NCBI GenBank assembly: GCA_964016885.1 | Contig: OZ024741.1 | Coordinates: 207,328,001-207,392,000, forward strand | DNA length: 64,000 bases | Direction of reading: 5' to 3' | Source: Eledone cirrhosa | Taxonomy: Eukaryota | Part shown: positions 2,861-50,778 of the stretch, one piece after another | Numbering within the stretch: the first letter of the stretch is position 1 | Layout: each line of letters begins with the position of its first letter | Translations under genes and position numbers: made by a program | The notes under the pieces: generated by a model | The model's database searches: none | Seen by the model: only the letters and a program-made list of their open reading frames with translations | Told to the model about the DNA's origin: nothing

Positions 2861-2925
2861 TATTTCATTATACATATTTCAGGGATACCAAATTAAAATA
2901 TGGCATGCCTTCGTCAGATAAAATA
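2861..2925 (-). ncRNA. Type I hammerhead ribozyme
   Basis: Reverse complement of 5388-5452. Confidence 0.75.
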
Positions 2926-5387: not shown

Positions 5388-5452
5388 TATTTTATCTGAC
5401 GAAGGCATGCCATATTTTAATTTGGTATCCCTGAAATATGTATAATGAAATA
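5388..5452 (+). ncRNA. Type I hammerhead ribozyme
   Basis: TATTTTAT-CTGACGA-AGG.ATGCCA...TGGTAT.CCT-GAAA-TATGTA-TA-ATGAAATA. Stem I 8 bp, near-palindromic stem III. Confidence 0.75.
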
Positions 5453-5505
5453 AATATGGTTTTATAAATATAGTTTCCATTTATTTAATATCGTATACAT
5501 ATGTG

Positions 5506-6315: not shown

Positions 6316-6427
6316 AGCAGAAAGGATATTCAATGTGTTGGTAATTCAAAAATATAAATGATTATAACTGATTCAGAACACTTAACAGATTTTCTGGAGC
6401 ATAATATAAAAGAAATTTTGAAATTGA

Positions 6428-17200: not shown

Positions 17201-17870
17201 GCTGTCCCATCTGGTGGTGTGCCAGACAACCGTGGCTGGGAAGACGTTGGGAAGAGGCAGCTCCTGCACCTCCACGCTGCGAGGATATTGGAAGCTCGAC
17301 GAGTCAAGCCAATGCAGGTGAGGTGGTGGAAGCAGCCGCACCCCAAACAGTTCCGGCCCCTCTTCCGTTTGTTAGTAGTGCCGCAAGTGCTGCAGGTGTC
17401 GATTTGGAGGGGTGGGGGATGGGGCGTGGGGCCGGGGACTGGGGCACCGAGCGGCATCAGGGGTAGGTGGCTGGTGTGTGTGGTTGGAAGGGAAAGTGTT
17501 GGTAAGAGGGCAACATAGCTCATCTATATATATGGGGGTGCCAGAAAACGAGAGTGAAAAGGGGGGGGACACGGGAAGGTAGAATGGCAGTAAATGAATG
17601 AGTGAATGGAACAACAACAAAAAAGGGATAGGAGGGGGGGAACAAGGGGTTGTTCCCAGGGGAAAGACCCAGAATTCAGCACGCACACATGCGAGCAACT
17701 GAGCGGAGTTAGGGCAGACAATTATTCATAGTTTAATAATCAATGCTGCAAAATCTTCTACCCTGGGGTCAATTCTCCATGCAGAGCCTAAAAGCATCCC
17801 TTCGCACACGCCATTATCTATCAGCTTAATTGAGCATCACCGTCCGGCGACCGAAAAACGCCATTCTTCT
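14300..17870 (-). mobile_element. CRE-like non-LTR retrotransposon (PHD finger - RT - zinc knuckle - restriction-like endonuclease), frameshifted; ends approximate
   Basis: Successive minus ORFs 16579-17523 (C4HC3 finger), 16148-16510 (PIAVG..RRL, QLGVG, KLDMRNAFNS), 15655-16179 (QQvDPLGPLLF, WYLDD) and 14429-15586 (CRCG..H..SC, RPDG..WDATCTDT, K..KY, PLAVETSG). Confidence 0.85.
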
Positions 17871-22134: not shown

Positions 22135-22621
22135 TATATTGTTATACTTTGGGATGGTCATGTTGCCAATAAGAAACACACGCACCAGTTGCTTTCACTT
22201 CAATTTATTATAAATTAAATTTATAAATTTAGGAATTTATAAATTTCCGGTTGGTTGGTTCCACAACCAGATGATTGTTCATATATTGTCAAAGTTCTTT
22301 CGTCACACATTCTCTGTGACGTAGGACAGAACAAAGGAGAGGCACAAAAACAAAGAAAATAATCCCCAGTCACTGAAGAGGTCACAGAATGTGTGACGAA
22401 AGAACTTTGACAATATATGAACATTCATCTGGTTGTGGAACCAACCAACCAATCGGAAATTTATAAATTCCTAAATTTATAAATTTAACTTATAATAAAT
22501 TGAAGTGAAAGCAACTGGTGCGTGTGTTTCTTATTGGCAACATGACTCTCCCAAAGTATAACAATATCTGTTTCAACACACGTTTTCAGATAAAGAATCT
22601 TGCTAAACAAATTCAGAAACG

Positions 22622-22625
<4 letters not shown>
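22135..22625. mobile_element. Inverted pair of PLE family A pLTRs (solo, non-coding)
   Basis: 22135-22312 is the reverse complement of about 22386-22566. Both outer ends abut TA tracts. Confidence 0.85.
22369..22411 (+). ncRNA. Minimal type I hammerhead (family A pLTR)
   Basis: GTCA-CTGAAGA-G-GTCACA/TGTGAC-GAAA-GAAC-TT-TGAC. Confidence 0.75.
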
Positions 22626-22677
<52 letters not shown>

Positions 22678-22680
<3 letters not shown>

Positions 22681-25505: not shown

Positions 25506-25549
25506 TATATATATATATATACAGTATATGTATATGTATATGTATATAT

Positions 25550-26408
25550 ATATAAAAGTAAAAAACAAAAACAATAACAAAGAGTGCAGTACAAACAGTG
25601 TTGGTAGGTTTACGCTTGAGAGTGGGGGTGGGGAACGACGTTTCGAGCATAAGCCCTTCATCAGGAGACAGGTTTCCTCCACCATCCAACACCTCGTCTC
25701 CTCCCCCGCTCACCGCCTCCCACCTCATCGCCCGCACCCTCCACACCCCCACCATCTACTTCCTCCCCAAGATCCCACAAACCCGACAACCCCGGCAGGC
25801 CCCATCGTGTCCGCCTGCAACTGCCCCACCGAACTCATCTCCGCCTTTCTCGACTCTACCCTCGACCCCCTTGTCACCGCCTTCCCCTCCCACATCTCCG
25901 ACACCAACCACGCCCTTCACCATTTTTACTGCCTCGCCTTCCCACCCGCCCCACACCCCCTCCTCTTCACCCTAGACATTAAGTCACATTACACCGTCAT
26001 GCCCCACGCCGACGGCCTACGCGCCCTCCGGCACTACCTCGACCTTCACCCTTGCCCGTCTCCTCTACCGCTACCCTCTTCCGCCTCATCAAGCTGGTCC
26101 TCACCCTTAACTACTTCTCCTTCTCGGATGAGTGTTACCAGCAGGTCACTGGGGTAGCCATGGGCACAAGAATGGGCCCCAACAATGCCAACCTTTTCGT
26201 TGGCCATGTTGTGGCCCAAATCTTTCCCCAGTACACCGGTCCCACGCCCGAACTGTACGATCGGTACATTGACGACTGCATCGGGGCCACGACTCTCATC
26301 CGAGAACAGCTCGACTCCTTTCTATCCTTCTTCTGCTCCTTCCACCCCTCCCTCCACTTCACCACCTCTATCTCCACCACCCACGTCCACTTCTTGGACA
26401 TCTCCGTA
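25550..26408 (+). mobile_element. Second Neptune-like PLE RT fragment (25666-26408) with inverted pLTR piece (25550-25665)
   Basis: YFLPKI, PIVSACNCPTE, LFTLDIKS.YT, GVAMGTRMGP.NANLFVG, RYIDD, FLDI. TA tracts on both sides. Confidence 0.85.
25631..25669 (-). ncRNA. Minimal hammerhead core, 5' arm of stem I lost at the inversion junction
   Basis: CTGATGA-AGGGC-ttat-GCTC-GAAA-CG-TC. Confidence 0.65.
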
Positions 26409-26429
26409 TATATACATATATATATATAT

Positions 26430-26930
26430 AGGGTGACTTTGGACATCCTGCAGACTAAAAACAAAACCTGTCAAAGGGCAAAGGAGCTCTTAAGAGTCAA
26501 TGGCCATCCAAAATCACCGGGAGAAATGACCCCTTAGCCTTTGTCAAGGCAGAATTCTAGGAGAAGGAAAACTCTGATATAACACCTGCAACCCTGATGG
26601 TATCCAATGATGTTGACTTGTTCTTCTTTTTGGTAAATATCATCTTGGTTAAGAGAGTGGGACTGGCTTTGTGCAGTGCCTTTGCTCACTATAAAAGCTT
26701 CACAGCACAGGCATTGCTTTATATCTGGAGATCTCTCTGCACTTGTCGTCACATGGTACCATGGGCCCAGCACTATGTGTCAATAATTGTCACAAGTGTA
26801 GTGTTTGTACCAGAGTTTTCAAGTCGCTGGCTGGACTAAAAAGTCACACTCATTCAGCGCATCGGTAGGGGTTCTCCTACATGGATATAAAGTAGTGGCT
26901 GTACTCGAAAACGAGTTGGCAGCCACCATA
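26430..26930 (+). mobile_element. Probable decayed 3' end of an RTE-type LINE
   Basis: One frame ends CSVCTRVFKSLAGLKSHTHSAHR* (C2H2 finger), followed by the terminal hairpin gtggctg-tactcg-aaaa-cgagt-tggcagccac and TA repeats. Confidence 0.45.
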
Positions 26931-31370: not shown

Positions 31371-31500
31371 AGCGTGGTGATAATGCCACACAAGGGCCAA
31401 GTGGAATGGCGGATCCACAGATGGCTATGTAACCATACATTCGCCAATCCTCGATAAGAGTGTTTAAATATCGAACATAAACAGTTCTAATAACGGTGAA

Positions 31501-34500
31501 ATGGAGACTAGAACGTCATGTGACAGACTCTCACCCAACAGGTGCCCCCTGGCTCAGCAGCAGGAACCTGACTGTCAACCAAATACTGCTGATGTTGGAG
31601 GAAGGAGAAGAAGGAAAGGGGCCAGAACCAACTGGACGAAAGAATTGAATAGAACTGTTATGCAATGTTACCTGAAAAGTAACCCCAAGGAGAGGGGCTA
31701 CAGGAGACGGATGCATAACATCTGGAACGAGATTGGTTTATTTAAATTAGATGAACAAAAATTGGCCGGGCAGGCTCGGGTAATAAGAACTAATGGGTGG
31801 ATAAGCGAGCTGGAACTGGAGGAACTGAGCATAGAGAATGGCTTGGAGATGGCGGGTGTAGTATGCCAGACAAGCGAGCCAGTGGGAAATGAAGGTGAAG
31901 AGGTCCTGAGAACGGAGGAACCACCCGAAGCAGACAATGATCTGAATACTGAGATAAATAATACCTGGAACAGAGATACGGCCACTGAGGAGATGAATGC
32001 TGACGGGCTAGGACAAGATTCGGTTGACATCCTAAATTTAGTGGTAGATGAGTTGAACAATGATAGTGGGAGACCTATGAACCTAAGATTTGTAGACAGG
32101 AAAAAGTTAAAAGAAACAACAGCTAAGGTAAACAAAGTCATCCCATACCTTGAAGCGAGGAGCCTTCACCAGTGCAACAATATCCTCAAAGCAACAGCAA
32201 ATACGGTGAGGAAACTACTTGGCATAAAAGCGAGAGGAAACAACAGACAAGAAAGAGCAGAGCCGTGGTGGAAGAAGCGACTGAGTGGGCAAATCGGGGA
32301 AATGAGAAATGACATAGGAAAGCTTGAGTCACTACTGAATGGGACACTAAAAAACATAGGCACTAAAAATAGACTGGAAATAAAATACAAAACTAGGAGG
32401 AAAAAGCTAAATATTATCATAGAGGAACTGAAGCAACGCATTGTAGCAAAGAGTGCAAAAATCAGGCGATACGAGAACAGAGTCAGTCAGTATGAACAGA
32501 ACCGCATGTTCGACAACAACCAGAAGATGCTGTTTGAACAGCTTGAGGGGAAAGAAAGAGGCAACGACTTGATCCCTGGGGCGGAGCAAACTAAAACATT
32601 CTGGAGAGGAATATGGGAGCAGGATGTTAGACATAATGTCCAGGCAGGGTTGATTGAGACAGTACAGAGGGAGATCAGTGAGCAGGCACAACAACAAACT
32701 GATTTGAGTATCACAGTTGAAACTCTTAAGGGGCAGGCAAAAAAACTAACCAACTGGAAATCACCAGGCCCAGATGGTGTGCAGGGGTATTGGATTAAAA
32801 ATATAACATCCCTCCACCCGAAGCTGACGGCCATGTTCAATGACTGCTTGGTGTCGGGTGAGGTGCCAGAGTGGTTGACAAAAGGTACCACAGTTCTGAT
32901 AATGAAGGATCGAATCAAGGGTAACGATGTTACCAACTATAGACCTATCACATGTCTGTCCGTAGTGTGGAAACTGTTGACGAGCATTGTGTCTGAGGAA
33001 ATCTACCATCACCTCCACACAAACAACTTGTTACCGGACGAACAGAAAGGATGCCGAAAGAAGTCACGTGGTACAAAGGACCAGTTACTTATTGATAAGA
33101 TGGTAATGGGGAATTGCAGGAGGAGACACACTGATCTTGCCATGGGATGGATAGACTACAGAAAGGCATTTGACATGGTGCCTCATTCTTGGATCACCAA
33201 AAGCCTGGAGATCTTCAGGGTGGCAGATAACATCAGACAGTTGCTAGGCAGGAGTATGGGGTCCTGGGAGACAGAGTTGACATCAACTGGAGTATCCTTG
33301 GGAAGCGTGAAGATCAAGAGAGGTATCTTCCAGGGAGATAGCCTGTCCCCTCTCTTGTTTGTCCTTGCCCTGATGCCCTTGACCATTATGCTGCGAAAAG
33401 TGAGAGCAGGATACAAGTTGGGAAGGGGAGAGCTTACCATCAATCACCTCCTCTTCATGGACGATCTTAAGCTCTTCGGGAAAAGTGAGAAGGAGTTGGA
33501 TGTGCTTGTTGACACTGTCCGTATTTTCAGCAGTGATATATGTATGCAGTTTGGTATTGGTAAATGTGGAGTCATTGTGATGAGGAGGGGTAGGTTGAGC
33601 AGAAGTAACGGGATCCAGATACCAACAGGTGAGATGATAAAGGAAATTGACTCTGAGGAAGGATACAAGTATTTGGGCGTTCTGGAGGCTGATGGCATAA
33701 AGAACAAAAAAATGAAGGAATTGTTAAGAACTGAATACATTCGGAGAGTAAGGAGCGTATTGAAGTCACATCTGAACAGCAGAAATGCCATAAGCGCAGT
33801 AAATTCCCGAGCTGTGTCTATTATTAGGTACAGTGCGGGAATTCTGAGATGGAATGTTGCTGAACAAAAAGAAATGGATAGGAAGACTAGGAAGCTATTG
33901 ACTATCTACAACATGTTCCACAAGAGGAGTGATGTCGATAGACTCTACCTAAGGAGATCTGAGGGTGGAAGAGGTCTTATCAGCATAGAGGACTGTGTTC
34001 AGATGGAGAAAAACAACCTATACAAATACGTGACCTATAGTAAGGAGCCAATGCTCAGAACTGTACTGAAGGAGGGGACAGTAGGCCAGGGGATGTCTAA
34101 GGAGGAAATAACATCAAGGAGGAAGAGCAGCCTTAAGGGAAAATCCCTTCATAGTACCTTCTTTGAGAAAACTGAATTTAGAGATCCACAGACATGGAAC
34201 TGGTTGAGAAGAGGAGACCTCAAAAAGGCTACAGAAGGAATGCTAATGGCTGCGCAGGAGCAGGCCCTCAAAACGAAGTGGTTGAAGCACCATATTTACA
34301 AGGAGGAGGCTAGCCCACTGTGCAGAATCTGTGGAGAGAGAGAGGAGACTGTGGCTCACATTGTGTCCGAGTGTAAACACCTAGCCCAGACCCACTATAA
34401 GGGCTGGAGACACGATGTGATGGGCAGGGTGATCCACTGGCACCTGTGCAAAGTAAACAATTTACCACATTCTGAGAAATGGTATGAGCATAGGCCAGAG

Positions 34501-34884
34501 GCGGTGATGGATAACGATCAGGTGAAGGTGCTGTGGGATTTTAGGATACAGACGGACAAAAAACTGGAACACAATAGACCTGACCTGGTGGTTGTGGACA
34601 AAGAAAAAAGATCGTGTCTGATTGTGGATGTGGCCTGCCCGTTCGACACGAGAGTGCAAGAGAAGGAGAGGGAGAAAATTAACCGATACCAGGACCTAAA
34701 GTGGGAGGTGAAAAGGATTTGGAACTGCCATGAAGTCAAAGTGATCCCGATTGTCATAGGCGCACTGGGGACTATCTCCAAAAGTTTCCAGGGATGGTTA
34801 AAGAAAATCGGCCCCTTCACGCTTTTTGGAACGCTTCAAAAGGCCGCTTGCTTGGAACAGCAAGAACCCTCCGATACGTCCTGA
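31501..34884 (+). CDS. R4/Dong-type non-LTR retrotransposon protein (Myb-like N-terminus, RT, CCHC, restriction-like endonuclease), nearly intact
   Basis: 1127-aa ORF: R..W....N..VMQCY, WKSPGPDG, NYRPITCL, WIDYRKAFD, IFQGDSLSP, FMDDLK, CRIC..H...C, RHD, RPD...D, K..RY.DL. A likely 1-nt frameshift removes the LLGTARTLR C-terminus. (TAA)n tail at about 34975-34996. Confidence 0.92.
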   Translation: METRTSCDRLSPNRCPLAQQQEPDCQPNTADVGGRRRRKGARTNWTKELNRTVMQCYLKSNPKERGYRRRMHNIWNEIGLFKLDEQKLAGQARVIRTNGWISELELEELSIENGLEMAGVVCQTSEPVGNEGEEVLRTEEPPEADNDLNTEINNTWNRDTATEEMNADGLGQDSVDILNLVVDELNNDSGRPMNLRFVDRKKLKETTAKVNKVIPYLEARSLHQCNNILKATANTVRKLLGIKARGNNRQERAEPWWKKRLSGQIGEMRNDIGKLESLLNGTLKNIGTKNRLEIKYKTRRKKLNIIIEELKQRIVAKSAKIRRYENRVSQYEQNRMFDNNQKMLFEQLEGKERGNDLIPGAEQTKTFWRGIWEQDVRHNVQAGLIETVQREISEQAQQQTDLSITVETLKGQAKKLTNWKSPGPDGVQGYWIKNITSLHPKLTAMFNDCLVSGEVPEWLTKGTTVLIMKDRIKGNDVTNYRPITCLSVVWKLLTSIVSEEIYHHLHTNNLLPDEQKGCRKKSRGTKDQLLIDKMVMGNCRRRHTDLAMGWIDYRKAFDMVPHSWITKSLEIFRVADNIRQLLGRSMGSWETELTSTGVSLGSVKIKRGIFQGDSLSPLLFVLALMPLTIMLRKVRAGYKLGRGELTINHLLFMDDLKLFGKSEKELDVLVDTVRIFSSDICMQFGIGKCGVIVMRRGRLSRSNGIQIPTGEMIKEIDSEEGYKYLGVLEADGIKNKKMKELLRTEYIRRVRSVLKSHLNSRNAISAVNSRAVSIIRYSAGILRWNVAEQKEMDRKTRKLLTIYNMFHKRSDVDRLYLRRSEGGRGLISIEDCVQMEKNNLYKYVTYSKEPMLRTVLKEGTVGQGMSKEEITSRRKSSLKGKSLHSTFFEKTEFRDPQTWNWLRRGDLKKATEGMLMAAQEQALKTKWLKHHIYKEEASPLCRICGEREETVAHIVSECKHLAQTHYKGWRHDVMGRVIHWHLCKVNNLPHSEKWYEHRPEAVMDNDQVKVLWDFRIQTDKKLEHNRPDLVVVDKEKRSCLIVDVACPFDTRVQEKEREKINRYQDLKWEVKRIWNCHEVKVIPIVIGALGTISKSFQGWLKKIGPFTLFGTLQKAACLEQQEPSDTS

Positions 34885-35849
34885 ATATCTGAGGCTGAAG
34901 GTAGTGGCTTGATATTCAATCCAACGGACTTTCCAGTTAACCAACATCAATGACTGAGATTCAAGGAATAACAACAATAATAATAATAATAATAATGAGG
35001 TCCCATAAAGTTTCGGATCCATATTATATTGTTGTATCGCTCAAATATTCAATTTTGTATTCTATATTTTGTATTCAAAAAAAGAAAATGGTTATAAATG
35101 GAACAAAACACCCTCTGTCTACACACTATATAGAACAGCCAAATAGCAGCAATTTAACTAACACCAGAAACTTGATACACTACCTATCCCATCACACTAA
35201 ATATAACAGCCAGATAACGGCAATTTCACCAGCATCATAATAATAATTACTATTATTATTGTCTCAAATTTTAAAAAATGTTTAATTCAAACTTTACGGG
35301 AATATGTCAACACAAAATATAATAAAAATATATATTAAACATACGAACACAAACTCATAGATACTATATCAGTAACCACAACACCACCGCTGCCACCACC
35401 CCACCGCATCCATCATCGCTACCACTATCCCATGGTCGCCGCCACCACTCATTCAATACTACCGACACTATTCCCCTGTTAACTTGAGAGAGAAAGGGGA
35501 AGGTGGCGGTATCACTAGACAAGAGAGAGGCTAGCAAAAGATATAAATAGATTGACTTGGTGACCTTGCCACCGGCCAAACGTCTACATCAACAACTATG
35601 GGACTGCTGGCTCACCCCTTCCTCACCAACAATATAAAAAGCCCCGGCACCACCACCAACATAGCCAACAACAATAACAGCCAACTACAACAAAAAGTAT
35701 ATTATATTATTGTAATGCACTGGGTGATTGCTGGCCTTGTGCCTGGAGTGGAGACAATTATTAATAATTTCGTTCTTAAGCCACGCAATGCTCACATTAA
35801 GGAACCACTCATGATAATAACAACTTAAAAAAACAACAAAAAGAAAACC

Positions 35850-38800
35850 CCGTGACCAAGAAATACCGGGATGGCGGCCGGCGGGGAATAGCCATGTCTC
35901 TAGGGGAGAACGACCCCTCTAGTCTTGGTTGACACTCGTTCTAGAAGTGGTAACACGAAATGATTACCCCCTTGGCGGATAAGGATAAAACGCGACAAAA
36001 TAAAGTAAATATCTAATAATAAAATCTCATACCGGATCGGCCGTCACCCGGGTAAAAAAGGGCCGCGTCCCTCAGAGAGGAACCAGACTGGGGTCGAAAA
36101 ATCAGCTAATGGTTCAAACCTTCCCATCACTTCGGAGCTGGAGACCTCCCATAACCGGAATACTCCTACTGTTGGCCCTCCATGCTCACCACCAAGAAAT
36201 CCAAAGAAAAAGAGAGAAAAATGGTCAAGGGAAGATAATAAAGAAGTCCTTGAGGCTTTCTACACTGCTATGTACTACCCATCAAATACATCGAATACAG
36301 AACAAACATATATCAACTGGAAAAAGAAACATCCCGAAAACAGAGGCTATATTGACAGTAACAAACTAGCCAATATACGAAGAAATATTGTAAGAAAAAA
36401 GTTACTAACTGATATAGAAATTGATCAGATCAAGCTATTAGCACAAAGTCAGCGAAGGGAAAATGAAACATGTGTCAGTGAAAACGAGGTAAACTGTAAC
36501 ACTTCGAATCCCAGGGTTGGGGCGGAATCACTGGCAACAGAACAAATTAAAGAAAGGAGCGAAAAAGTGGAGGGAGTGCATGCTCAGGATGAAACTCCAA
36601 ATGAAAATAATGAGATCGTAAATGATAAAGAAATGAATGAGAATGAACTTGCCAACTTGAAGGATGAAATTATGATCGAATGGATGAAAATGAAAGAATC
36701 TGACATGGGGCAACGAGACACCCTCCCTAAGATCCAGAACTCCAAACAGAACCAAAAGATAATACACAAGACTAACATAATTCTCAAAAACATTATCATC
36801 ACAAACAAACTAAACATTACTGACTTAAATCATCTCTATTATGCATCGGCTAAAGTCACCACTCACTTATGTGGAGTGAAGATGAAAAAACAAAGGAATT
36901 CCCACAAGAAATCTACTTGGCAAGATAACATCAATCGCCAAATAAACCTTCTCCGATCTGACATAGAAATTTTAACAAACTATAAAGTAGGTGAACATGT
37001 TAAACAAACTAAACTTAGAAAATTGAAAAAAAAGTACAGTATAAGATCAACATGTGACATAGACATGCTGATAGAAACAATCAAGCAAAAAGTGTCGGCC
37101 AAAGCTGCTCGTATAAGGCGCTTTGAAAAACGATCGAGATTCTATAAGGACAATAATATGTTCAAAAACAACCAAAGAAACTTCTACAGAAAAATTGGTA
37201 AGTCAACAATATCTGCTAAATCAATACCACCCAAGGAGGAAGTGCAAGAATTCTGGGAAAAGATCTGGGCCGAAGAAAAAGTTCATAACATACATGCCCC
37301 ATGGATAGACAGACAAATGAAAGAAACAGCTCACCTTGAAGAACAAACATGGGAAAATATAACAGTTGAACAGTTGCGCTTGGCTCTAAGAAAAACCAAC
37401 AAATGGAAATCCCCAGGAAAAGACAAAATACAAAACTTTTGGATAAATGCCTTCACAGAGTCTCATGAGCTGTTAGCCCAACTTTACAATGAAATAGTTA
37501 AGGAGCCAGAAAAGATACCATCATGGCTAGTTAACGGCATTACATTCCTGCTACCGAAGAATGATGAGACAAACAATCCCAAAAATTACAGACCGATAAC
37601 CTGCTTGACCACAATGTATAAAATTTTAACATCAGTCCTAACTGAATACACATATGACCACCTGATAACAAATGACCTATTTCCCATTGAGCAGAAAGGG
37701 TGTAAACGAGGCTCATATGGCTGTAAGGATCAGCTTCTGGTTAACAAAATGATACTGGAAGATTGTCATAATAGACACAAAAATCTATCGATTGCTTGGA
37801 TAGATTATAAAAAAGCATTCGATAGTTTGCCACACAGTTGGATTGAAAAATGTTTAGAGATTTTCAAAATATCCCCCGTTGTCAGGAGGTTTTTGTCATT
37901 CAGTATGAAGACATGGAGAACGACACTCCTTTTGAATAGTGAAACAAAATCACTGGAAGCTGGAGAAGTTAATATTAATTGTGGAATTTTTCAGGGTGAC
38001 TCTTTATCACCGCTTTTATTCTGCATCGCACTTATACCATTAAGTAAAATGCTCAATGAAACAAAACATGGATATAGAGTCTATGACAAAACCATTAATC
38101 ACCTGTTCTACATGGATGACCTGAAACTATTTGCAAAAAAAGATGAACAATTGCAAGGGCTATTATCCACTGTGAAGCAGTTCAGTGATGACATTAAAAT
38201 AGAGTTTGGACTGGATAAATGCGCCAAAGCAACGTTCACCAGAGGAAAGCTGCTGAAGAGTTCAGACATTAATCTTGATCGGGGGAACGTGATAAGAGAG
38301 CTTGATCAAGAAAAATCTTACAAATATCTAGGTGTTTGTGAAGGAGACGGAATCAAGCACTCGACAATGAGGGAAAGGATAAGGAAGGGATGTTACCGCA
38401 GAGTGAGAGCAATCTTAAGAACGGAATTGAATGCAAGGAATAGGATCGATGCCATAAACACGCTTGCCATACCAGTAGTAACCTACAGTTACAATGTCAT
38501 CAACTGGTCAAGCACAGAGATCCGTAGGCTCGATACAAAAATCCGAAAATTCTTAACCATGCACAGAATGCATCACCCTAAAGCAGACATAGATAGAATA
38601 TATCTCCCTAGTAAAGAAGGAAGACGTGGGTTAATCCAGTTAGACATTGCGTTGAAAACTGCAACAATTGGATTATCCACATATCTAAGGGAATCACATG
38701 ATTGGATGATCAAACTCGTTTTGAAACACGAAAGCACTAAAAGATCATATTCCATTACAAAAGATGCACAAAGATACAGTAATGGACTACAAATTTCAGA

Positions 38801-39793
38801 AGTCCCATTTACTGCTGAAATGGAAAACACAGAAAAAGCAAAGCAGGTAAAAGTAACTGCAAAGAAAGAACTGCTACAGAAAAGCCTCTGTATGGAAAAT
38901 ACCCAGAGCGAGCTAACAATCCTGATGTTGACAAAACTTTAACCCATCAGTGGTTGGCATCCTCTGGACTGAAATCGGAGACTGAAGGACTGATTATATC
39001 GGCACAAGATCAGTGTCTGCCAACAAAAAATTACCAAGCCAACATAATAAAAAATGGGTGCAGCCCATTATGCCGTGTATGCAAAAAACAACCAGAGACC
39101 ATTGACCATATAATTTCAATGTGCAGTCCTATAGCTCCAACCGAATACCTAAACAGGCATGACAGAGCTGCACAATACATACATTGGATAATGTGTAAGC
39201 ATTTTGACCTGCCCCATCAAAAGAATTGGTGGGAGCATCAACCACCTCCCATACTTGAAAAAGATCACATCTCAATCTTGTGGAACTTTAGCATCCAAAC
39301 AGACCGAAAAATAGATGCAAATAGACCTGATATAATATTGAAGGACTTTCAAAGGAGGGTATGCCTGCTAATTGATATGTCTGTTCCAATAGACAAGAAT
39401 GTATCTATAAAAACATTTGAAAAATTGAGCAAGTATAAGGACCTGGAGATAGAAATTGGAAAAATGTGGAAATTGAGAACTAAAACCATACCAGTGGTTG
39501 TAGGCGCTCTGGGAATGATACTAAGGGGTCTAACGACTACTTATCGCAAATCCCAGGAAACCCGCGTATAGGAGAAATACAAAAGATAGTACTAATGGGA
39601 ACTGCCCATATACTAAGGAAGATCCTGTCAATATAAGTACATCACAAGTCTAAACACTAAGGATGCATGTGTGAATATGTATGTTCTTTCTTGAACATGG
39701 CGGACCTTGTTGTCTCTTGAGGTCACTGGTTGTGACTTGGTGATAACTCGTATGAACATAAAGCAAGATAAATGCAAATAATAATAATAATAA
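35850..39793 (+). mobile_element. Second R4/Dong-type family, near full length, frameshifted
   Basis: ORFs 36270-38942 (RT: NYRPITCL, FQGDSLSP, YMDD) and 38954-39571 (CRVC..H...C, RHD, RPDII..LIDMSVP..EKLSKY). (TAA)n tail. Confidence 0.92.
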
Positions 39794-40578
39794 GGGAAGA
39801 AAACGAACATGGAGGATATATCGTTATGGAATCGCTACCGTAAATTTTTGATTTTTACTTATTTAAAACAAGATTACAGTTTTAACGCTCAGCAAGCCAC
39901 AACGCATCACATTACGGCATAGGGCCCCAATATTTAATATTTAATTTTGGATCAGAAATGTTATAGTCGAAAAAGAGAAAAATGGCAAAATGGCTAAGTG
40001 GACAGACAGGCAAATAATTTCACCACCAACAACACCACCGCCACTATCACCACTACCACGCCAAAAACTCTAGTCAAGTTACCTCAACTTCTATTTCTAC
40101 TTCAACTTCAACACCGTCACTACAGTACTACATCACCACCACCACTGCCTCATTATCGCTACCGCCGCTATTCTCTCCCACTACCTCCTGCTAAGTACTA
40201 CTAACACAGCACCACCACCACTGCCTCATTATCGCTACCGGCGCTATTCTCTCCCACTACCTCCTGCTAAGACAGGCATCGTAGTATCCCCACTAAAAGA
40301 GGAAGGCATCAAAAGATATAAATAGACTGATTTGATGACCCGGTCAAAAAATCAAAAAAACAAAAATCAAAATCAAAACAGCACAGCAGCAACGAAAAAC
40401 GTAAAGAGAAGAAAAAAGAAAAGAAAAACAGACAGACAGAGAAGGAAAATAAAAAAAAACTAAGTCAGACATTCAAACATTACATTACAATGAAACTTAT
40501 GCTTATTCTTTTTTTTTGGGGGGGGGGGTATGGGGGGTTACCTATTTGTTTGTTTGTTTATTTATGTTCATCTACAGC

Positions 40579-43500
40579 GTGATAGTGCCACACTAAAATC
40601 ACCGGAGGTGATGAAATCACCGGTGGTTATGTAACCATACATTCACCAATCCTCGATAAGAGTGTTTAAATGTCGAACCTAAATAGTTCGAATAAGGGTG
40701 AAGTGGAGACTGGAATGTCATGTGATAGACTCTCACCCAACAGGTGCTCCCTGGCTCAGCAGCATGGACCTGGCAGTCAACCAAATACTGCTGGTGTCGG
40801 AGGAAGAAGAAGAAGGAAAGGGACCAGAACCAACTGGACGAAAGAATTGAATAGAACTGTTATGCAATGTTACCTGAAGAATAACCCCAAGGAGAAAGGC
40901 TATAGGAAACGGATGCATAACATCTGGAACGAGATTGGTCTATTTAAATTAGATGAACAAAAATTGACCGGGCAGGCTCGGGTAATAAGAACTAATGGGT
41001 GGATAAGCGAGCTGGAACTGGAGGAACTGAGCAGAGAGATTAGGTTGGAAATGGAGAGTGGAGTATGCCAGGCAAACGAGCCAGTGGGAAATGAAGGTGA
41101 AGAGGTTGAGAGAACGGAGGAACCATCCGAAGCAGACAATGATCTGAATGCTGAAATAAATAATACCTCGAACAAAGATACGGCCATTGAGGAGATGAAT
41201 GCTGACGGGCTAGGACAAGATTTGGTTGATATACTAAACTTAGTGGTAGATGAATTGAACAATGATAGTGGGAAACCTATGAACCTAAGATTTGTAGACA
41301 GGAAAAAGTTAAAAGAAACAACAGCTAAGGTAAACAAAGTCATCCCATACCTTGAACCTTCACCAGTGCAACAATATCCTCAAAGCAACAGCAAATGCGG
41401 TGAGAAAATTACTTGGCATAAAAGCGAGAGGAAACAACAAACAAGAAAGATCAGAACCTTGGTGGAAGAAACGACTGAATGGTCAAATCAGGGAAATGAG
41501 TAATGACATAGGAAAGCTTGAGTCCCTACTGAATGGGACACTAAAAATTGACTGGAAATAAAGTACAAAACTAGGAGGAAAAAGCTAAATATTATCATAG
41601 AGGAACTGAAGCAACGCATTGTAGCAAAGAGTGCAACAATTAGGCGATACGAGAGCAGAGTCAGTCAGTATAGACAGAACCGCATGTTTGACAACAACCA
41701 GATGTTGTTTGGACAGCTTGAATGGAAAGAAAGAGGCAACGACTTGATCCCTGAGGCGGAACAAACTAAGACATTCTGGAGAGGAATATGGGAGCAGGAT
41801 GTTAAACATAATGACCAGGCAGTGTGGATTGAGACAGTACAAAAGGAGATTAGTGAACAGGCACACAAACAAACTGATTTGAGTATCACAGTTGAAACTC
41901 TTAAGGGGCAGGCCAAAAGACTAATCAACTGGAAATCGCCAGGCCCAGATGGTGTGCAGGGGTTTTGGATTAAAAAAATAACATCCCTACACCCGAAACT
42001 GACAACCATGTTCAATGAGTGCTGGATGTCAGGTGAGGTACCAGAGTGGTTGACAAAAGGTACCACAGTTCTGGTAATGAAAGACCGAATCAAGAGTAAT
42101 GATGTTACCAACTATGGACCTATCACAGGTCTGTCCGTAATGTGGAAACTGTTGACAAGCATTGTGTCTGAGGAAATCTACCATCACCTGCACACAAAAT
42201 ACTTGTTACCGGACGAACAGAAAGGATGCCGAAAGAAGGCCCGTGGTACAAAGGACCAGTTACTTATTGATAAGATGGTAATGAGGAATTGCAAGAGGAG
42301 ACACACTGGTCTTGCCATGGGATGGATAGACAAAAGAGCATTTGACATTGTGCCTCATTCTTGGATCACCAAAAGCCTAGAGATCTTCAGGGTGGCAGAT
42401 AACATCAGACAGTTGTTGAGCAAAAGTATGAAGTCCTGGAAAACAGAGTTAACATCAGCTGGAGAATCCTTGGGAGGCGTGAAGATCAAGAGAGGTATCT
42501 TCCAGGGAGATAGTCTGTCCCCTCTCTTGTTTGTCCTTGCCCTGATGCCCCTGACCATTATACTGCGAAAAGTGAGAGCAGGATACAAGTTGGGAAAGGG
42601 ACAGCTTACCATCAATCACCTCCTCTTCATGGACGATCTTAAGCTCTTCGGAAAGAGTGAGAAGGAGTTGGATGTGCTTGTTGACACTGTCCGAATTTTC
42701 AGCAATGATATATGTATGCAATTTGGTATTAGTAAGTGTGGAGTCCTTGTGATGAAGAGGGGTAAATTGAGCAGAAGCAACGGAATCCAGGTACCAACAG
42801 GTGAGATAATAAAGGAAATTGACACTGAAGAAGGATACAAGTATTTGGGTGTTCTGGAGGCTGATGACATCAAGAACAAAACAATGAAGGAATTGATAAG
42901 ATCTGAATACATTCGGAGAGTAAGGAACGTATTAAAGTCACATCTGAACGGTAGGAATGCCATAAGTGCAGTAAATTCCCGAGCTGTGTTTATTATTAGG
43001 TACAGTGCGGGAATTCTGAGATGGAATGTTGCTGAACAAAAAGAAATGGATAGGAAGACTAGGAAGCTATTGACTATCTACAACATGTTCCACAAGAGGA
43101 GTGATGTCGATAGACTCTACTTAAGGAGATCTGAAGGTGGAAGTGTTTTTATCAGCATAGAGGACTGTGTTTAGATGGAGAAAAACAACCTACACAAATA
43201 CGTGACCTATATTAAGGAGCTAATGCTCAGAATTGTACTGAAGAAGAGGACAATAGACCAGGGGATGTCCAAGGAGGAAATAATAACAAGAAGAAAGAGC
43301 AGCCTTCATGAAAAATCCCTTCATAGTACCTTCTTTGAGAAAACGGAATTCAGAGATCCACAGACATGGAACTGGTTGAAAAGAGGAGACCTTAAAAAGG
43401 CTACAGAAGGAATGCTAATGGCTGCGCAAGAGCAGGCCCTCAAAACGAAGTGGCTGGAACACCATATTTACAAGGAGGAGGCTAGCCCACTGTGCAGGAT

Positions 43501-44160
43501 CTGTGGAGAGAGAGAGGAGACTGTGACTCACGTTGTATCCGAGTGTAAACACCTAGCCCAGACTCACTATAAAGGCTGGAGACATGATGTGATGGGCAGG
43601 GTGATCCACTGGCACCTATGCAAAGTAAACAATTTACCACATTTTGAGAAGTGGTATGAGCATAAGCCAGAGTCGGTGATAGAAAACGATCAGGTGAAGG
43701 TGCTATGGGATTTTAGGATACAGACGGAAAAGAAACTGGAACACAATAGTCCTGACCTGGTGGTTTTGGACAAGGAAAAGAGATCGTGCCTGATTGTGTA
43801 TGTGGCCTGCCCATTCGACACGAGAGTGCAAGAGAAGGAGGGGGAGAAAATTAACCGACCCCAGGACTTAAAGTGGGAGGTAAAAAGGATTTGGAACTGC
43901 CATGAAGTCAAAGTGGTTCCGATTGTCATAGGCGCACTAGGTACTATCTCAAGGAGTTTCCAGGGATGGTTAAAGAAGATTAGTCCAGCCCCGCTTTTTT
44001 TGGTACACTTCAAAGGGCATGCTTGCTGGGAACAGCAAGAACCCTCCGATACGTCCTGAATATCTGAGGCTGCAAGTTGCAGCTTGATATTCATTTCAAC
44101 AAACTTTCCAGTTAAATAACATCAAAGACTGAGACTCAAAGAACAATAATAATAATAATA
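40579..44160 (+). mobile_element. Disrupted second copy of the 31.5-kb R4/Dong family
   Basis: ORFs 40670-41503, 41684-43174 and 43175-44059 are colinear with the 1127-aa protein. (TAA)n tail. Confidence 0.92.
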
Positions 44161-44342
44161 AGTGTTTCTACTTTAGGCACAAGGCCAGCAAATACCCAGT
44201 GCATTACTGGTACTTTATTTTATCGACCCCGTAAGGATGAAAGGCAAAGTCAACCTCGCCGGGATTTGAACTCAGATCGTAAAGGGACGTAACTATGCTG
44301 GAAAGCATGGCGTCCGACCCTCTACCGATACTGCCAATCCAC
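44160..44342 (-). mobile_element. SINE in the tail of the R4/Dong element
   Basis: Full SINE with TSD tcaaagaacaataataataataa. Confidence 0.9.
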
Positions 44343-44371
44343 GACATCAAAGAACAATAATAATAATAAGA

Positions 44372-47052
44372 GAGACTATGAAGGAATTAAAGCGAAAGAT
44401 ACTGAATGAGCTTGCAGTAGTAAGACACTCTAGTATAAATGATAGAGAACCCCTTCAAAAACTCCCAAATACAATTCAAAATAGAAAACAAATAATGATT
44501 AGTAATTCTGTGACAAAAGAAATCATAGAAGAACTAGAACCTGATCTTACTGAGCTAAATAAATCATGTATGCATCTGCTAGAGTAATTGAAACAAGTTT
44601 TTTACTACAAAAAAAAACAAAAAAGTTGAACCTTCGAGGTAAACCAATTTCGAGGAGTAGAAAAGGAGATTGACGTAATGAGAGGAGAAATATCTTTATT
44701 GAGTGAGTTAACCGCTGGAAATGATATAAGATCCAAGAAGGTAAGAAAGCTAAAGAGAAAGTATGAACTGTCTTCTAGAGAAGCAATTGTTTCAACAAAA
44801 GAATCTCTGAAACAAAAAGTCCAAGTAAAAGCCCAACGAATTCGTAGATTCGAGAAGCGGAACAACTTCTACAGGCAAAATAAGTTGTTCTCATCCAATG
44901 CCAAGTCATTTTATAGAGGAGTAGGGAAGGAAAAAATAATTATTGATTTAGAAGAACAGGCGTGGGAAGACATCTTTATAGCGGGCAGCACTCAGTAAAT
45001 CTTATAAATGGAAATCTCCTTGTAGAGACAGGGTGCCAAATTTCTGGCCTTCCTCACTCATAATATATTGGTCAAGCTGTTTAATGGAATTATGAAAGAT
45101 CCAAAAAATACACCTGATTGGATAGCAAGTGGCATTACCTACCTTCTACGAAAGAACAACGAAACCAAAGATCCAAAAACTATCGGCCCATAACATGCTT
45201 GTCCAGCACTTATAAACTGTTAACCTATATTCTCATGGAAAAAGCATACGTGTTTTTGGAGGAGAACAATCTTTTCCCCATTGAACAAAAAGGGTGCCGA
45301 CGAGGTTCATATGGCTGCAAGATCAACTTTTGATTAATCGTATGATCCTTGAGAGCTGTCATAATAAACACAAAAATCTCAGTTCTGCATGGATCGATTA
45401 TAAAAAAAGCCTTTGACAGCATACCACACTCATGGATTCTGAAATTACTGGACATCTTCAAAATCTCACCTGTGATCTCAAACTTCCTGAAGCACAGTAT
45501 GTCATTATGGAACACAAATCTTCAATTGTCTCATTCCACTGGGGTACTGTGATCTAGGAATATAAACATCAAATATGGTATATTCCAGGGTGACTCATTT
45601 TAACCCTTGATTTTCTGCATAGCTTTAATACCCCTTACATCCGAGCTTAATAGAACAGGGTACCGTTATAGAATTGACAAAAAAAAAATAAGCCACTTAT
45701 TTTATATGGAGGATTTGAAGCTATATTGCAAAGACAATGACGAACTGGTAGGCCTTTTACGCACAGTAAAAATGTTTAGCGATGACATCAGGATGGAGTT
45801 TGAACTTGACAAGTGTGCAAAAGCCACTTTCAAGAAGGGGAAGCTTGTCAACTCTACTCAGTTGAATTAGTTGCTGAAACAATCATAAAAGAACTTGAGC
45901 AGGAACAAACCTATAAATACTTAGCGATTAATGAGGGCTCTGACATACAGCATGCTAGTATGAAAGAGAGGATACGGAAAGAATGTTACGTGCAGAATGC
46001 TACGTGCAGTTCTGGGATCAGAACTAAACGCTCGTAACAAGGTGCTAGCCATAAATTCCTTGGCAGTCCCAGTTGTCACTTCAGTGTGTTGAACTGGAAT
46101 ATGAGTGAAATCAAAAGAATCGACACCAAAGTCCGTAAGCTACTGACCTGTAATAGGATGCACCACCCAAAAGCAGATGTGGATCGTCTTTACCTTCCTA
46201 GAACTCAGGGAGACCGTGGCCTGATCCAATTTGAACTTGCTTACAAGACCACCATCATTGGACTGGCCAAATACCTTGAAACAACTAACGACTATATGCT
46301 GAAACTTGTTGAAAAGCGTGAGAGAAGTAAGAAGCTTCATTCTATCTTGAAGGAGAGCAAAAAATATGCTACTGATCTCATGCTGGACAGACTAAAGAAA
46401 CTGATGCAACTGATGCTGCTAGGCACATAAAATCACTGGCAAAAGCAAAAGGGCAAGGACAATTAACATCAAATTGGGAGCAGAAACCTCTGCATGGCAA
46501 ATATGTGGCCCGTAGCAAACAAGCTGATGTTGACCAAAAGCACACCCATCAGTGGCTACGTAGTTCAGAGCTAAAGGCGGAGAGTGAAGGCTTCATCTTA
46601 GCTGCCCAAGATCAAAGCTTATTGACTCGTAATTACCAGGCCAATATGATGAGAAACGGAATAAACCCAAAGTGCCGATTCTGCAATGGTGGGGTTGAAA
46701 CAGCAGATCACTTAGTCTCCGGATGTAAAGTTTTAGCACCAGTAGAATACAAATATAGACATGACAGAGTTGGCCAATATCTACACTGGGTAATATGTCG
46801 GCATTACAAAATCAAAGCTGAAGACAAGTGGTACAACCATCACCCTGAGGCTGTAACTGAAGGAGAAGAAGTAACAATTCTCTGGGATTTTCCTGTACAT
46901 ACTGACAGGACCATAAAAGCAAATAGACCTGACATCATTATAAAAGATCAACATAACAAGGTCTGTTTTTTTATAGAAATGAGCATCCCATGTGATCACA
47001 ATATCGCGGCAAAGGAGTTTGACAAGCTACGAAAATATAAAGATCTGCTTAT
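44372..47052 (+). pseudogene. Third R4/Dong-type family, heavily decayed and truncated at both ends
   Basis: Fragments NYRPITCL, EQKGCRRGSYGCK, FYMEDLKL, HHPKADVDRLY, CRFC..H...C, RHD, RPDII. Confidence 0.88.
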
Positions 47053-47465
47053 TTTGATTTCAATGATGCTTATGTTTGTCGGGAGAGTTCTTGGTGCTGG
47101 TGGGGTGTAGTAGTTTTTTTTTTGTGATGTCTGTGTGCTGCTTTATATATTGTATGAGTTCTTTATTTGTCATGTTTATGGCTGTGTACGTTATGGGGAG
47201 AAGGGTGATTTTGTTGCTGTGTGTGTTTTGTTGTGTTTGCGATGTTGGTGTTGTTGGTGATGTTGGTGATGGTGTGGTTGTTGTTGGCGCTGGTGCTTGT
47301 GGTGTACTGGTGATGGTGGTGGTGTTGCTGCAAGTCTCCTTGCAGCCTTTAAATCGTATATATAGCATATAGCATATATAGCATATTGGCATCTGTTATA
47401 TATAGGAATCAGTTGATTTCATATCAACTAACTCTTTTTTCACTGATTAATATATATATATATAT

Positions 47466-48002
47466 CGTCGGTCATAGCACTAGAAGAGGTAAATATTTAA
47501 ATCGTATATTAATTTATTTAAAAGATTGTTTAATGTTTACTTGTTCCGCTCATATTTACAGTTCTGGTATCTCAAATTAGTACCATGGAACAACCACTAT
47601 TATAGACACCATATATTTCCGTGGGTACTTAGTACCTACTGGAATATCTATATCATTTATCTGAATTCTCCTTAATGTTGAGAAAAAAATGTTGTATCAT
47701 GCTGCTGTTTCTAGTAACATGAGATATCAACGAGTCTATTATTCCCGCTTTTTCTAACGGCCCGTTTGTGTCGTGGTAATTTTAACGGCTTGCTTAATTC
47801 ACCGGGCAGAAAGCGATACATCCACATCTACGTGGATTTATATCTAGTAGGTTTGGAAAAGCTATCTGAAGAGCTTTATCTTTCCATTGGAAATTCTCTG
47901 AATTTCAAATCTTTTGATTAGCGAAACCGTCGGTCATGGCACTAGAATATTTAAATGGTATTTTAATTTATTTAAAAGATTGTTTAATTTTTACTTATTC
48001 CG

Positions 48003-48005
<3 letters not shown>
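47466..48005 (+). mobile_element. Retrozyme-like element R1: one 462-bp unit plus terminal redundancy, between (TA)n tracts
   Basis: cgtcggtcat(a/g)gcactagaa...ccgctcatat occurs at 47466 and 47928. The repeat starts in the 3' half of a hammerhead. Confidence 0.75.
47861..47940 (+). ncRNA. Type I hammerhead ribozyme (R1)
   Basis: GCTAT-CTGAAGA-GCT...AGC-GAAA-CC-gtc-GG-TC-ATGGC (ATAGC in the other copy). Predicted GUC cleavage after 47935. Confidence 0.8.
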
Positions 48006-48091
<86 letters not shown>

Positions 48092-48231
48092 AGAAACACA
48101 GTAAACCGTGTGTCTAGTCTAAAATTACAAGGGTTGAAAAACCACATTTGTTTGAAATATTTAACCAAGAAGCAGACAGAATGATAAAATAAAAATATAT
48201 TATTATACAAACCGCCTCAATAACCATTATA

Positions 48232-48311
48232 TCTCTCGGACAGATTATCCCTAATCTGTTTCGCCCTGAGTGCGTTTGTAACAGATAATCCTGGGCATCA
48301 TCAGCGAGAGA
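48232..48311 (-). ncRNA. Canonical type I hammerhead (R2 unit 1)
   Basis: TCTCTCG-CTGATGA-T-GCCC...GGGC-GAAA-CAGATTA-ggga-TAATCTG-TC-CGAGAGA. Stem I 7 bp, stem III 7 bp plus A-U, GUC triplet. Confidence 0.92.
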
Positions 48312-48699
48312 ATCTGATTAAATGCAACAAACACTATTTGCCAACGTTCACACAGAAAGATGAATTTGTCACCTCGTGCGCCGCTAGTCAAACGTGGTAA
48401 GCGCGTATTGAATAGAAATAACAGTCCAACACACACAACTTAATATGCTCAACTTGTGAGGGAGCAGAAATATATATGAAAATTAGAGTTAAAACTCCAA
48501 TTGGAACCCTGTAACTATTAAGCTCCAAGTATAAAAATACTGAACCGATTAATAATATATAGTAAGAAACACAGTAAACCGTGTGTCTAAAATTACATGG
48601 GTTGAAAAACCACATTTGTTTGAAATATTTAACCAAGAAGCAGACAGAATGATAAAATAAAAATATATTATTATACAAACCGCCTCAATAACCATTATA

Positions 48700-48779
48700 T
48701 CTCTCGGACAGATTATCCCTAATCTGTTTCGCCCTGAGTGTGTTTGTAACAGATAATCCTGGGCATCATCAGCGAGAGA
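48700..48779 (-). ncRNA. Canonical type I hammerhead (R2 unit 2)
   Basis: Same motif 468 bp downstream; the only difference lies in loop II. Confidence 0.92.
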
Positions 48780-49167
48780 ATCTGATTAAATGCAACAAAC
48801 ACTATTTGCCAACGTTCACACAGAAAGATGAATTTATCACCTCGTGCGCCGCTAGTCAAACGTGGTAAGCGCGTATTGAATAGAAATAACAGTCCAACAC
48901 AGACAACTTAATATGCTCAACTTGTGAGGGAGCAGAAATATATATGAAAATTAGAGTTAAAACTCCAATTGGAACCCTGTAACTATTAAGCTCCAAGTAT
49001 AAAAATACTGAACCGATTAATAATATATAGTAAGAAACACAGTAAACCGTGTGTCTAAAATTACATGGGTTGAAAAACCACATTTGTTTGAAATATTTAA
49101 CCAAGAAGCAGACAGAATGATAAAATAAAAATATATTATTATACAAACCGCCTCAATAACCATTATA

Positions 49168-49247
49168 TCTCTCGGACAGATTATCCCTAATCTGTTTCGC
49201 CCTGAGTGCGTTTGTAACAGATAATCCTGGGCATCATCAGCGAGAGA
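49168..49247 (-). ncRNA. Canonical type I hammerhead (R2 unit 3)
   Basis: Same motif 936 bp downstream. Confidence 0.92.
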
Positions 49248-49784
49248 ATCTGATTAAATGCAACAAACACTATTTGCCAACGTTCACACAGAAAGATGAA
49301 TTTGTCACCTCGTGCGCCGCTAGTCAAACGTGGTAAGCGCGTATTGAATAGAAATAACAGTCCAACACACACAACTTAATAAGCTCAACTTGTGAGGGAG
49401 CAGAAATATATATGAAAATTAGAGTTAAAACTCCAATTGGAACCCTGTAACTATTAAGCTCCAAGTATAAAAATACTGAGCCGATTAACAATATATAGTA
49501 AGAAACACAGTAAACCGTGTGTCTAAAATTACAAGGGTTGAAAAACCACATTTGTTTGAAATATTTAACCAAGAAGCAGACAGCTTCGTCACAGTGGCGT
49601 GAATAGGGTTATCGACAACTAGAAACAGCAGTCAAATCCTTTCAACAGAGTTAGCTCTACAATTAAGGAGCCGTATTTATATATCTATATCCAAAATTGA
49701 TGATGTGTATTTCTAGTAGATACAGCACGTCTTGCTGGCCAGTCACTGATTTGAACTTGAAGTGTAAACATAGATAGCTGGACT

Positions 49785-49879
49785 TCTTCCTTGTTGAAAA
49801 TCCAAGTACCGGCCTCCATGGTTTACCATTCGATTAATTGGTGAAATATATTTCTTTAATGGAATATATACAGGGAAGA
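49785..49879 (+). ncRNA. Type I hammerhead with U3-A8 variant core (R3 unit 1)
   Basis: TCTTCCTTG-TTGAAAA-T-CCAA...TTGG-T-GAAA-TATATTTC-tttaat-GGAATATA-TA-CAGGGAAGA. Stem I 9 bp, stem III 8 bp plus A-U. Confidence 0.78.
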
Positions 49880-50330
49880 TTAATCATATTATAAGGTATC
49901 TATTTTTGAAGTTCTGGTTAACTTTATTTAGTTACCTACCTAGCTATGTGTGCTTACACACTTGTAAAAATTATCTCCTGTGATTATTCATGTTTATTTA
50001 TATGTTAATCAATTTCTAGTTATTATAAAATGCTTGGATCTATTCGTTAGAATCTTAGAGCTTATTTTGCAGGTGATATGGCGCATCTCTTTCTGGCATG
50101 ACACCCATAATTTTGATTATCTTAATTTTGGATATAGATATATAAATACGGCTCCTTAATTGTAGAGCTAACTCTGTTGAAATGATTTGACTGCTGTTTC
50201 TAGTTGTCGATAACCCTATTCACGCCACTGTGACGAAGCTGGTATGATGTGCGTATTTCTAGTAGATGCAGCACGTGTTGCTGGCCAGTCGCTCATTTGA
50301 ACTTGAAGTGTAAACATAGATCGCTACACT

Positions 50331-50425
50331 TCTTCTTTGTTGAAAATCCAAGTACCGGCCTCCATGGTTTACCATTCGATTAATTGGTGAAATATATTTC
50401 TTTAATGGAATATATACAGGGAAGA
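50331..50425 (+). ncRNA. Type I hammerhead with U3-A8 variant core (R3 unit 2)
   Basis: Same motif 546 bp downstream. The single stem I change (C to U) retains pairing as U-G. Confidence 0.78.
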
Positions 50426-50566
50426 TTAATCATATTATAAGGTATCTATTTTTGAAGTTCTGGTTAACTTTATTTAGTTACCTACCTAGCTATGTGTGCT
50501 TACACACTTGCAAAAATTATCTCCTGTGATTATTCATGTTTATTTATATGTTAATCAATTTCTAGT

Positions 50567-50636
<70 letters not shown>

Positions 50637-50696
50637 GACGTAAAATAAGAGAATTTTAAAAAAATTTAAAAAATTAACTTACTTACTAAAATTTTC

Positions 50697-50778
50697 ACTC
50701 CAACTAATTAGTTTCTGCAATGGGATAAAGACAGTTACGTAATATAACCGTCGAGAATTCATTGCGTCATCAGGGAGT
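50697..50778 (-). ncRNA. Type I hammerhead with extended stem II, in an element starting at (TA)n about 50631
   Basis: Exact reverse complement of 61439-61520. Confidence 0.82.

Follow-up and report, generated by a model that had tools for sequence, protein, structure and literature searches.

Retrozymes, a proposed link between them and Penelope-like elements, and the tail and inverted arm of Penelope-like insertions are all in print already. Animal non-LTR retrozymes (Cervera and de la Pena 2020, PMC7229834; Li et al., bioRxiv 10.64898/2026.07.22.740005) are built of non-coding tandem units with one type I hammerhead each and a GC content below 50%; their predicted circles are structured, their copies are dispersed, and the same genomes hold Penelope-like elements. 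Hydra-clade Penelope-like elements (Craig et al. 2021, PMC8557442) target (TA)n, carry a hammerhead near the 3' end and form partial tandems with an inverted, 5'-truncated arm and a tail at one end. For PAc, a Poseidon element of the anole (Frangieh et al. 2024, PMC11167929), two internal start sites used in vitro by this non-Hydra Penelope-like protein account for the tail, both target strands are cut and extended, and sequence 3' of the start sites is needed. Non-autonomous Chlamys elements such as MRC1 are likewise non-coding, head-to-tail and multicopy, with a Penelope-like mover (PMC8557442). Which enzyme moves animal retrozymes, and how the Penelope tail and inverted arm originate, are stated as open questions in the accessible portions of PMC7229834, PMC8557442 and bioRxiv 10.64898/2026.07.22.740005.

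Here we describe a retrozyme, family A, from a 64,000-nucleotide stretch of the Eledone cirrhosa genome (the window). It resembles the animal retrozymes in all the respects listed above, and its 468-nt unit falls within the 51-972 bp range given by Li et al.; relative to the 170-400 nt circles of PMC7229834 it is longer, with an 8-bp stem III and a 26-nt loop II. It resembles the Hydra clade in target and insertion structure, and the Hydra-type elements of this genome have the same start-site helix and a similar tail length, but family A has no ORF, has no alignable homology to them beyond the start-site motif, and carries a full hammerhead where the clade has the short-stem-III form (PMC8557442). 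Tails of 82-125 nt in the elements treated here compare with the 30-40 bp that PMC8557442 gives for Penelope-like elements. The start sites of PAc are adjacent and lie in an AC-rich loop without target homology (PMC11167929), whereas those of family A are 82 nt apart and consist of UAUA, able to pair with (TA)n. The MRC1-type Chlamys elements are found in green algae and share 3'-end similarity with their partner, and most Chlamys elements are without a canonical hammerhead (PMC8557442).

Nothing in the accessible portions of PMC7229834 and bioRxiv 10.64898/2026.07.22.740005 describes a pair of fixed 3' ends, inverted insertions with two arms, or a cis helix in common with a named mover. Neither these two sources nor the accessible portions of PMC8557442, PMC11167929 and PMC8969392, nor literature searches, yielded the two-ended insertion pattern of a retrozyme, the pairing rule or the shared helix reported below, although such detail could stand in supplements like figure S9 of PMC7229834, figure S2 of PMC11167929 and files S1-S2 of PMC8557442. 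What is new here is that the signature of Penelope-type insertion is complete in family A and that its insertions indicate one particular mover. We propose, as the probable reading, that family A is a non-coding hammerhead retrozyme whose ends fall at two fixed points beside (TA)n, and that it is copied in trans by a Hydra-type reverse transcriptase/endonuclease from one, likely circular, 468-nt RNA. In family A the template is 468 nt long and both start sites are mapped, a helix that may be the binding site varies naturally by paired changes, short ends strictly go with long ones, and a candidate enzyme can be named; the questions of the mover and of the tail and arm become testable in vitro with a substrate far smaller than a full element.

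The array and its dispersed family

The array occupies 48082-49583 on the minus strand (period 468, 3.2 copies, 98% matches). With phase 1 set at the predicted ribozyme cut, this arm consists of unit phases 60-468, 1-468, 1-468 and 1-152, ending on its 3' side at the short (S) start site of the family. A first-pass annotation had recognized three canonical minus-strand hammerheads whose cuts would release two exact 468-nt monomers, in about 3.2 units differing by only a few bases, and motif, pairing and spacing all agree. The hammerheads lie at 49168-49247 (predicted cut 49175/49174), 48700-48779 (48707/48706) and 48232-48311 (48239/48238). In each, 19 of 19 predicted pairs form, with 7 bp in stem I, 4 bp in stem II and, counting A15.1-U16.1, 8 bp in stem III; every unit has the CUGAUGA/GAAA core and a GUC triplet, which conforms to the type I motif (CUGANGA, GAAA, NUH and three stems). 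Between the predicted cuts lie two predicted 468-nt minus-strand monomers, u1 (48707-49174) and u2 (48239-48706), with 3 differences between them; against these two monomers the 5' partial unit has 4 and 7 differences. GC content is 35%, below the 50% mark. No ORF of at least 120 aa and no long terminal repeats occur in 48082-49583, and the array is without a reverse transcriptase and GIY-YIG ORF, which shows that family A is not an autonomous Penelope-like element. With at least two consecutive tandem units and one type I hammerhead apiece, the array element belongs to the non-LTR retrozymes, a known class in which it is unexceptional; it behaves like a Penelope-like element in trans but falls outside that class.

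Rfam hammerhead models gave no match at the gathering score in the whole window or at E ≤ 10 in 47900-50700, and the basis of the ribozyme call is therefore its motif, pairing and conservation; the missing match may be due to the long loop II. Core columns are 99-100% conserved across family A copies, against 91-98% elsewhere in the unit (indels included). Predicted folding energies of the circular monomers are -115 and -119 kcal/mol, with z = -5.05 for u2 relative to 40 dinucleotide shuffles, and the active ribozyme fold, 1.6-2.0 kcal/mol above the ensemble of the predicted circle, is predicted to be accessible. Self-cleavage is predicted, including the activity as a monomer that the annotation had expected. 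Loop II (49203-49228) repeats 10 of the 11 bases of the stem III 3' strand; as a ribozyme off switch this repeat is unsupported, its predicted occupancy being only 0.003-0.12. In a subfamily represented by L091, L124 and L140, the stem III loop is reverse-complemented (UCCC for GGGA) and the stem is retained.

A 26-mer of family A has 634 exact matches in the 3.0-Gb genome (reversed control, 0), and the family is spread over many contigs. The annotation had singled out the phases and copy numbers of other genomic arrays as informative, and their comparison reveals a dispersed multicopy family with variable start phase. The first 100 matches listed reach 425.7 of the 442.9 Mb of contig C1; all 59 underlying loci were fetched, and the unselected set comprises the 56 loci left after removal of three segmental duplicates (L098-L100). 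L097-L100 are a single two-armed insertion present four times inside 240 kb of that contig, a segmental duplication.

Family A 3' ends fall at phases 146-158 (S) or 233-240 (the long end, L), about 82 nt apart, with L at 208 in a deletion subfamily; they nearly always adjoin (TA)n, and a few abut other simple repeats. The 5' ends of the contig-C1 loci are scattered over the phases. When S and L are assigned from the end coordinate, the 28 head-to-head two-armed loci of the contig-C1 set divide into 24 S+L, no S+S, no L+L and four with a disrupted end; if the ends were chosen independently, the probability that 24 pairs in 24 are mixed would by our arithmetic be 0.5^24. Another 26 of the 27 single-orientation loci in the set terminate at S or L, and one locus is arranged tail to tail. 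Family A insertions therefore display each part of the Penelope-like signature: 5' truncation, partial tandem, inverted 5' arm, a tail at one end and a microsatellite target. The non-integral copy number of the array comes from a fixed 3' start site combined with random 5' truncation.

Template of an insertion

Arm haplotypes were compared by direct pairwise alignment of 258 segments from 88 loci (the contig-C1 set and the top similarity matches), with L073 and L129 counted apart. Copies within the same arm differ by 1.65% (97 pairs) and copies in opposite arms by 1.74% (70 pairs), against 5.8% between different loci (24,287 pairs), and in 28 of 34 loci the arms are closer to each other than to 90% of other loci. 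Opposite arms cover the same phases, often both over more than half a unit, which means that the same sequence was copied twice. These comparisons support the derivation of both arms of an insertion from one homogeneous template. Taken with the 24 of 28 S+L loci and the lack of like pairs, the shared arm haplotype points to two primings on the same RNA sequence.

The predicted cut site is spanned by 61 of 85 arms, 38 arms are longer than one unit, and the junction at the cut site has its exact length in 109 of 109 pattern matches; L079 carries a 43-nt duplication across this junction. A cleaved linear monomer as template can be rejected, since none of the 85 arms begins at phase 1 and six begin near it where 3.5 are expected. 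The template ran through the cut site, and a circle, which fits best, is its likely form.

The insertion pattern does not in itself require a circle made by the ribozyme, because family B, an unrelated non-coding family adjoining the array, gives the same partial tandems without a hammerhead core. This bears on an alternative in which mover and start sites are the same but copying would proceed along an uncleaved, linear tandem transcript, or by repeated precise template jumps, while the hammerhead rides along or acts at another stage. Insertions of family B share the architecture of those of family A, and their copies are likewise homogeneous (3.8-4.5% difference within insertions, against 8.6%). 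Cleavage is unnecessary in vitro for the anole element, whose main substrate is unprocessed RNA (PMC11167929), and eight of nine Xenopus retrozyme dimers stayed uncleaved in vitro (bioRxiv 10.64898/2026.07.22.740005). A linear multimer, however, would transmit the differences between its units, whereas family A copies within an insertion are 3.5 times closer than those between loci, several being identical. The uniform length of the cut-site junctions also speaks against it, as does the hammerhead core being the most conserved part of the unit, and circles have been demonstrated for other animal retrozymes (PMC7229834). We consider a linear template unlikely on balance and favour the circle.

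The candidate mover and the start-site helix

Hydra-type Penelope-like sequences of the window include a two-armed insertion at 2730-5497 with one long and one short 3' end, and a reverse-transcriptase fragment at 6405-7052 on the plus strand that served as the query for fuller copies. The family of this fragment is abundant (31,329 first-look candidates, 150 of them scored). Its fuller ORFs have DKT, a CxCX5C linker and a C-terminal nuclease region, and its copies also carry a hammerhead and (TA)n ends. By these motifs and (TA)n ends, which match those in PMC8557442, the family appears to belong to the Hydra clade. The N-terminal RWK, a Hydra motif, was not found in three ORFs, which are possibly truncated, and a Pfam search of the window's Penelope-like fragments gave one weak match among seven.

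These Hydra-type copies have the same paired ends as family A. Among 45 rows, 3' ends lie 10-23 nt (21 rows) or 85-111 nt (20 rows) past the anchor, about 90 nt apart, and in the two-armed copies (2730-5497, L012, L162, L169 and L170) a short end is paired with a long one. The tail measures 82-85 nt in family A and about 90 nt in the Hydra-type copies. When family A, limited to its L-site region, is locally aligned with four Hydra ends, the significance is only weak (p 0.02, 0.06, 0.15 and 0.33).

What the two also share is a small helix beside the start sites. Both family A start sites are UAUA, predicted to be unpaired in the circle (P ≥ 0.9). A GCUC...GAGC helix follows the S site at 49458-49481 and the L site at 49383-49401, both on the minus strand; further copies of the first start at 49013 and 48545, where a C-to-U change keeps a wobble pair, and further copies of the second at 48933 and 48465. 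Such a helix lies 0-12 nt 3' of the start site at nine of nine sites examined, in families A, B, C and D and the Hydra-type elements, the motif having been defined post hoc on A, B and Hydra and C and D having been inspected afterwards; its background is 8-17% of positions. The sequences are GCUC/GAGC (A-S, A-L, B-L and Hydra-L), GCUU/GAGC (B-S), ACUC/GAGU (Hydra-S), GUUC/GAAC (C-S and D) and UCUC/GAGA (C-L), so that bases change in pairs: G-C, A-U or U-A at pair 1, and C-G or U-A at pair 2. The core is only 4 bp, worth about -1 to -7 kcal/mol. In the Hydra copy L171 the helix is mutated; the script chose another register for two Hydra-S copies, one of them mutated, and the predicted fold of C-L favours another register as well. 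B, C and D are sister non-coding families; with A they make a minimum of four non-coding families, unrelated to one another, that have the helix in this genome.

Since fixed ends, S+L pairing and a start-site helix with paired changes are common to family A and the Hydra-type copies, the Hydra reverse transcriptase/endonuclease is the likely mover of family A. We think it improbable that the retrozyme is moved by another retroelement, whether of a different Penelope-like clade or a LINE, and that the helix is general or due to chance. The window does contain several further reverse-transcriptase families, the sequence similarity of family A to Hydra ends is weak, and Naiad elements target (TA)n as well (PMC8557442). 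Tail length, (TA)n target, S+L pairing and helix nevertheless all agree with the Hydra copies, and paired fixed 3' ends are not known from LINE insertions.

With the Hydra protein as mover, we tentatively go a step further and suggest, as a possibility for which our confidence is limited, that the 4-bp helix 0-12 nt 3' of UAUA, occurring twice per unit, is the recognition signal of the Hydra reverse transcriptase. One circle might then offer both signals to a protein dimer, and both ends of a cut (TA)n run might prime on the same molecule. Because the copied part does not include the helix, both signals would be retained on tandem or circular templates only. If correct, this would explain the Penelope tail together with the inverted repeat, and an animal retrozyme would have its mover identified.

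The mechanism we propose for a family A insertion has four steps. Tandem transcripts are predicted to self-cleave at GUC, and the 468-nt monomer would be ligated to a circle. The Hydra protein would then bind the two short RNA helices, each 0-12 nt 3' of a single-stranded UAUA, and cut a (TA)n run. The two target ends, in a pattern that is observed and by a chemistry that is conjectural, would prime at phases of about 155 and about 237 on the same RNA sequence, probably aided by pairing of UAUA with (TA)n; each cDNA would extend 5' through the ribozyme junction for a random length, after which the cDNA ends would join head to head or one arm would be lost. As a last step, which the alleles described next suggest for the present array, a unit may be added at the DNA level.

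History of the array and its neighbours

The annotation had read the array as a recent insertion made by rolling-circle copying of one circular RNA. With about 8 variant sites in all, the array is indeed a fairly young copy, yet not a new one. Copying from one homogeneous template that runs across the cut site is likewise upheld, and that template is likely circular. The two fixed 3' ends, the two-armed insertions and the Hydra link were no part of the annotation. What does not hold is a single pass for the 3.2 units: u1 and u2 share private alleles at phases 109, 163 and 261; these are seen in only 1 of 88 loci, and neither flanking partial unit has them, a pattern that points to later duplication or conversion at the DNA level. 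From these shared alleles, the array appears to have been inserted as about 2.2 units and to have gained one unit later. That all 3.2 units were made in one recent rolling-circle pass is therefore very improbable, even though the units are 98-99% alike and L073 has six identical units; L129, with its duplicated two-unit block, also argues against it. L073:1433-6433 comprises 7.2 identical units and an inverted 62-152 piece with the same ends, amid perfect inverted repeats, and is either a recent expansion or an assembly problem.

A DNA-level satellite or assembly artefact with a chance ribozyme motif is scarcely credible, for while no short-read record bridges the array, so that the unit count is that of the assembly, there are hundreds of short dispersed copies with fixed 3' ends, the ribozyme core is conserved, and family A sequence was found in four of four public sequencing runs compared. 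In runs X4 and X5, A and B sequence at 90-99% was seen, including in the run labelled as another organism (X4).

Beyond the array, and unnoticed in the annotation, family B sequence makes up the rest of the insertion (49581-50569), which stops at a second (TA)n run. A minus-strand piece (49581-49698, phases 101-218) is joined to family A phase 60 via a 3-nt microhomology, and a plus-strand arm (49700-50569; 546-nt period, 1.6 units) runs from phase 221 to the S end, with start-site helices at 50032-50061 and 50151-50168. Family B is non-coding, with partial tandems and two fixed ends 125 nt apart, and its 27-mer has 597 exact matches. Among 90 contig-C1 loci, its two-armed insertions number 44 S+L, two L+L, no S+S and 17 unclassed. 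BLAST of A and B against the window and the Hydra loci gave short matches only. Family B copies have no CUGANGA core, except for one deletion variant; no HDV-like descriptor matched, and no Rfam ribozyme was found in 47900-50700 at E ≤ 10. A break hot spot was considered as a hint of a hidden ribozyme on the strength of a first set of loci, including the window, in which phase 221 accounted for 3 of 92 5' ends and phase 218 for 2 of 16 internal 3' ends; in a preset test the corresponding counts for 60 new loci were 1 of 94 and 0 of 21, and the hot spot was rejected.

The A-B fusion pairs two S ends, against the S+L rule if it arose in a single event. Either one event used two RNAs, B phases 218 and 221 nearly abutting, or two insertions were followed by a deletion, with the rule kept; we slightly favour the latter. 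No further A-B fusions were found among the family A and B loci examined.

The two (TA)n runs that flank this insertion act as landing pads, since A, B, C and D all end there. The (TA)41 run at 48006-48088 adjoins the 3' ends of the A arm and of family C, a second hammerhead retrozyme on the plus strand of the left flank (47470-48005; 454-nt period, core CUGAAGA at 47866). In its type I hammerhead, stem II carries a very long insert and stem III measures 3 bp; the ends of the family lie at phases 454 and about 115, with start-site helices at 47561 and 47667, and there are 2407 first-look candidates for the family. The (TA)31 run at 50570-50632 adjoins the 3' ends of the B arm and of the minus-strand element D, which has a CUGAUGA core and a start-site helix after its 3' end. 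Further retroelements of the window lie at 14429-17523, 22509-26537 and 31468-47110; they comprise a GC-rich element on the minus strand, Penelope-like fragments whose hammerheads are minimal, and a plus-strand cluster of reverse-transcriptase ORFs, one of 1138 aa. Element D (50633 onward; about 61444) is very abundant, and in the public runs it has the highest read depth among the sequences compared.
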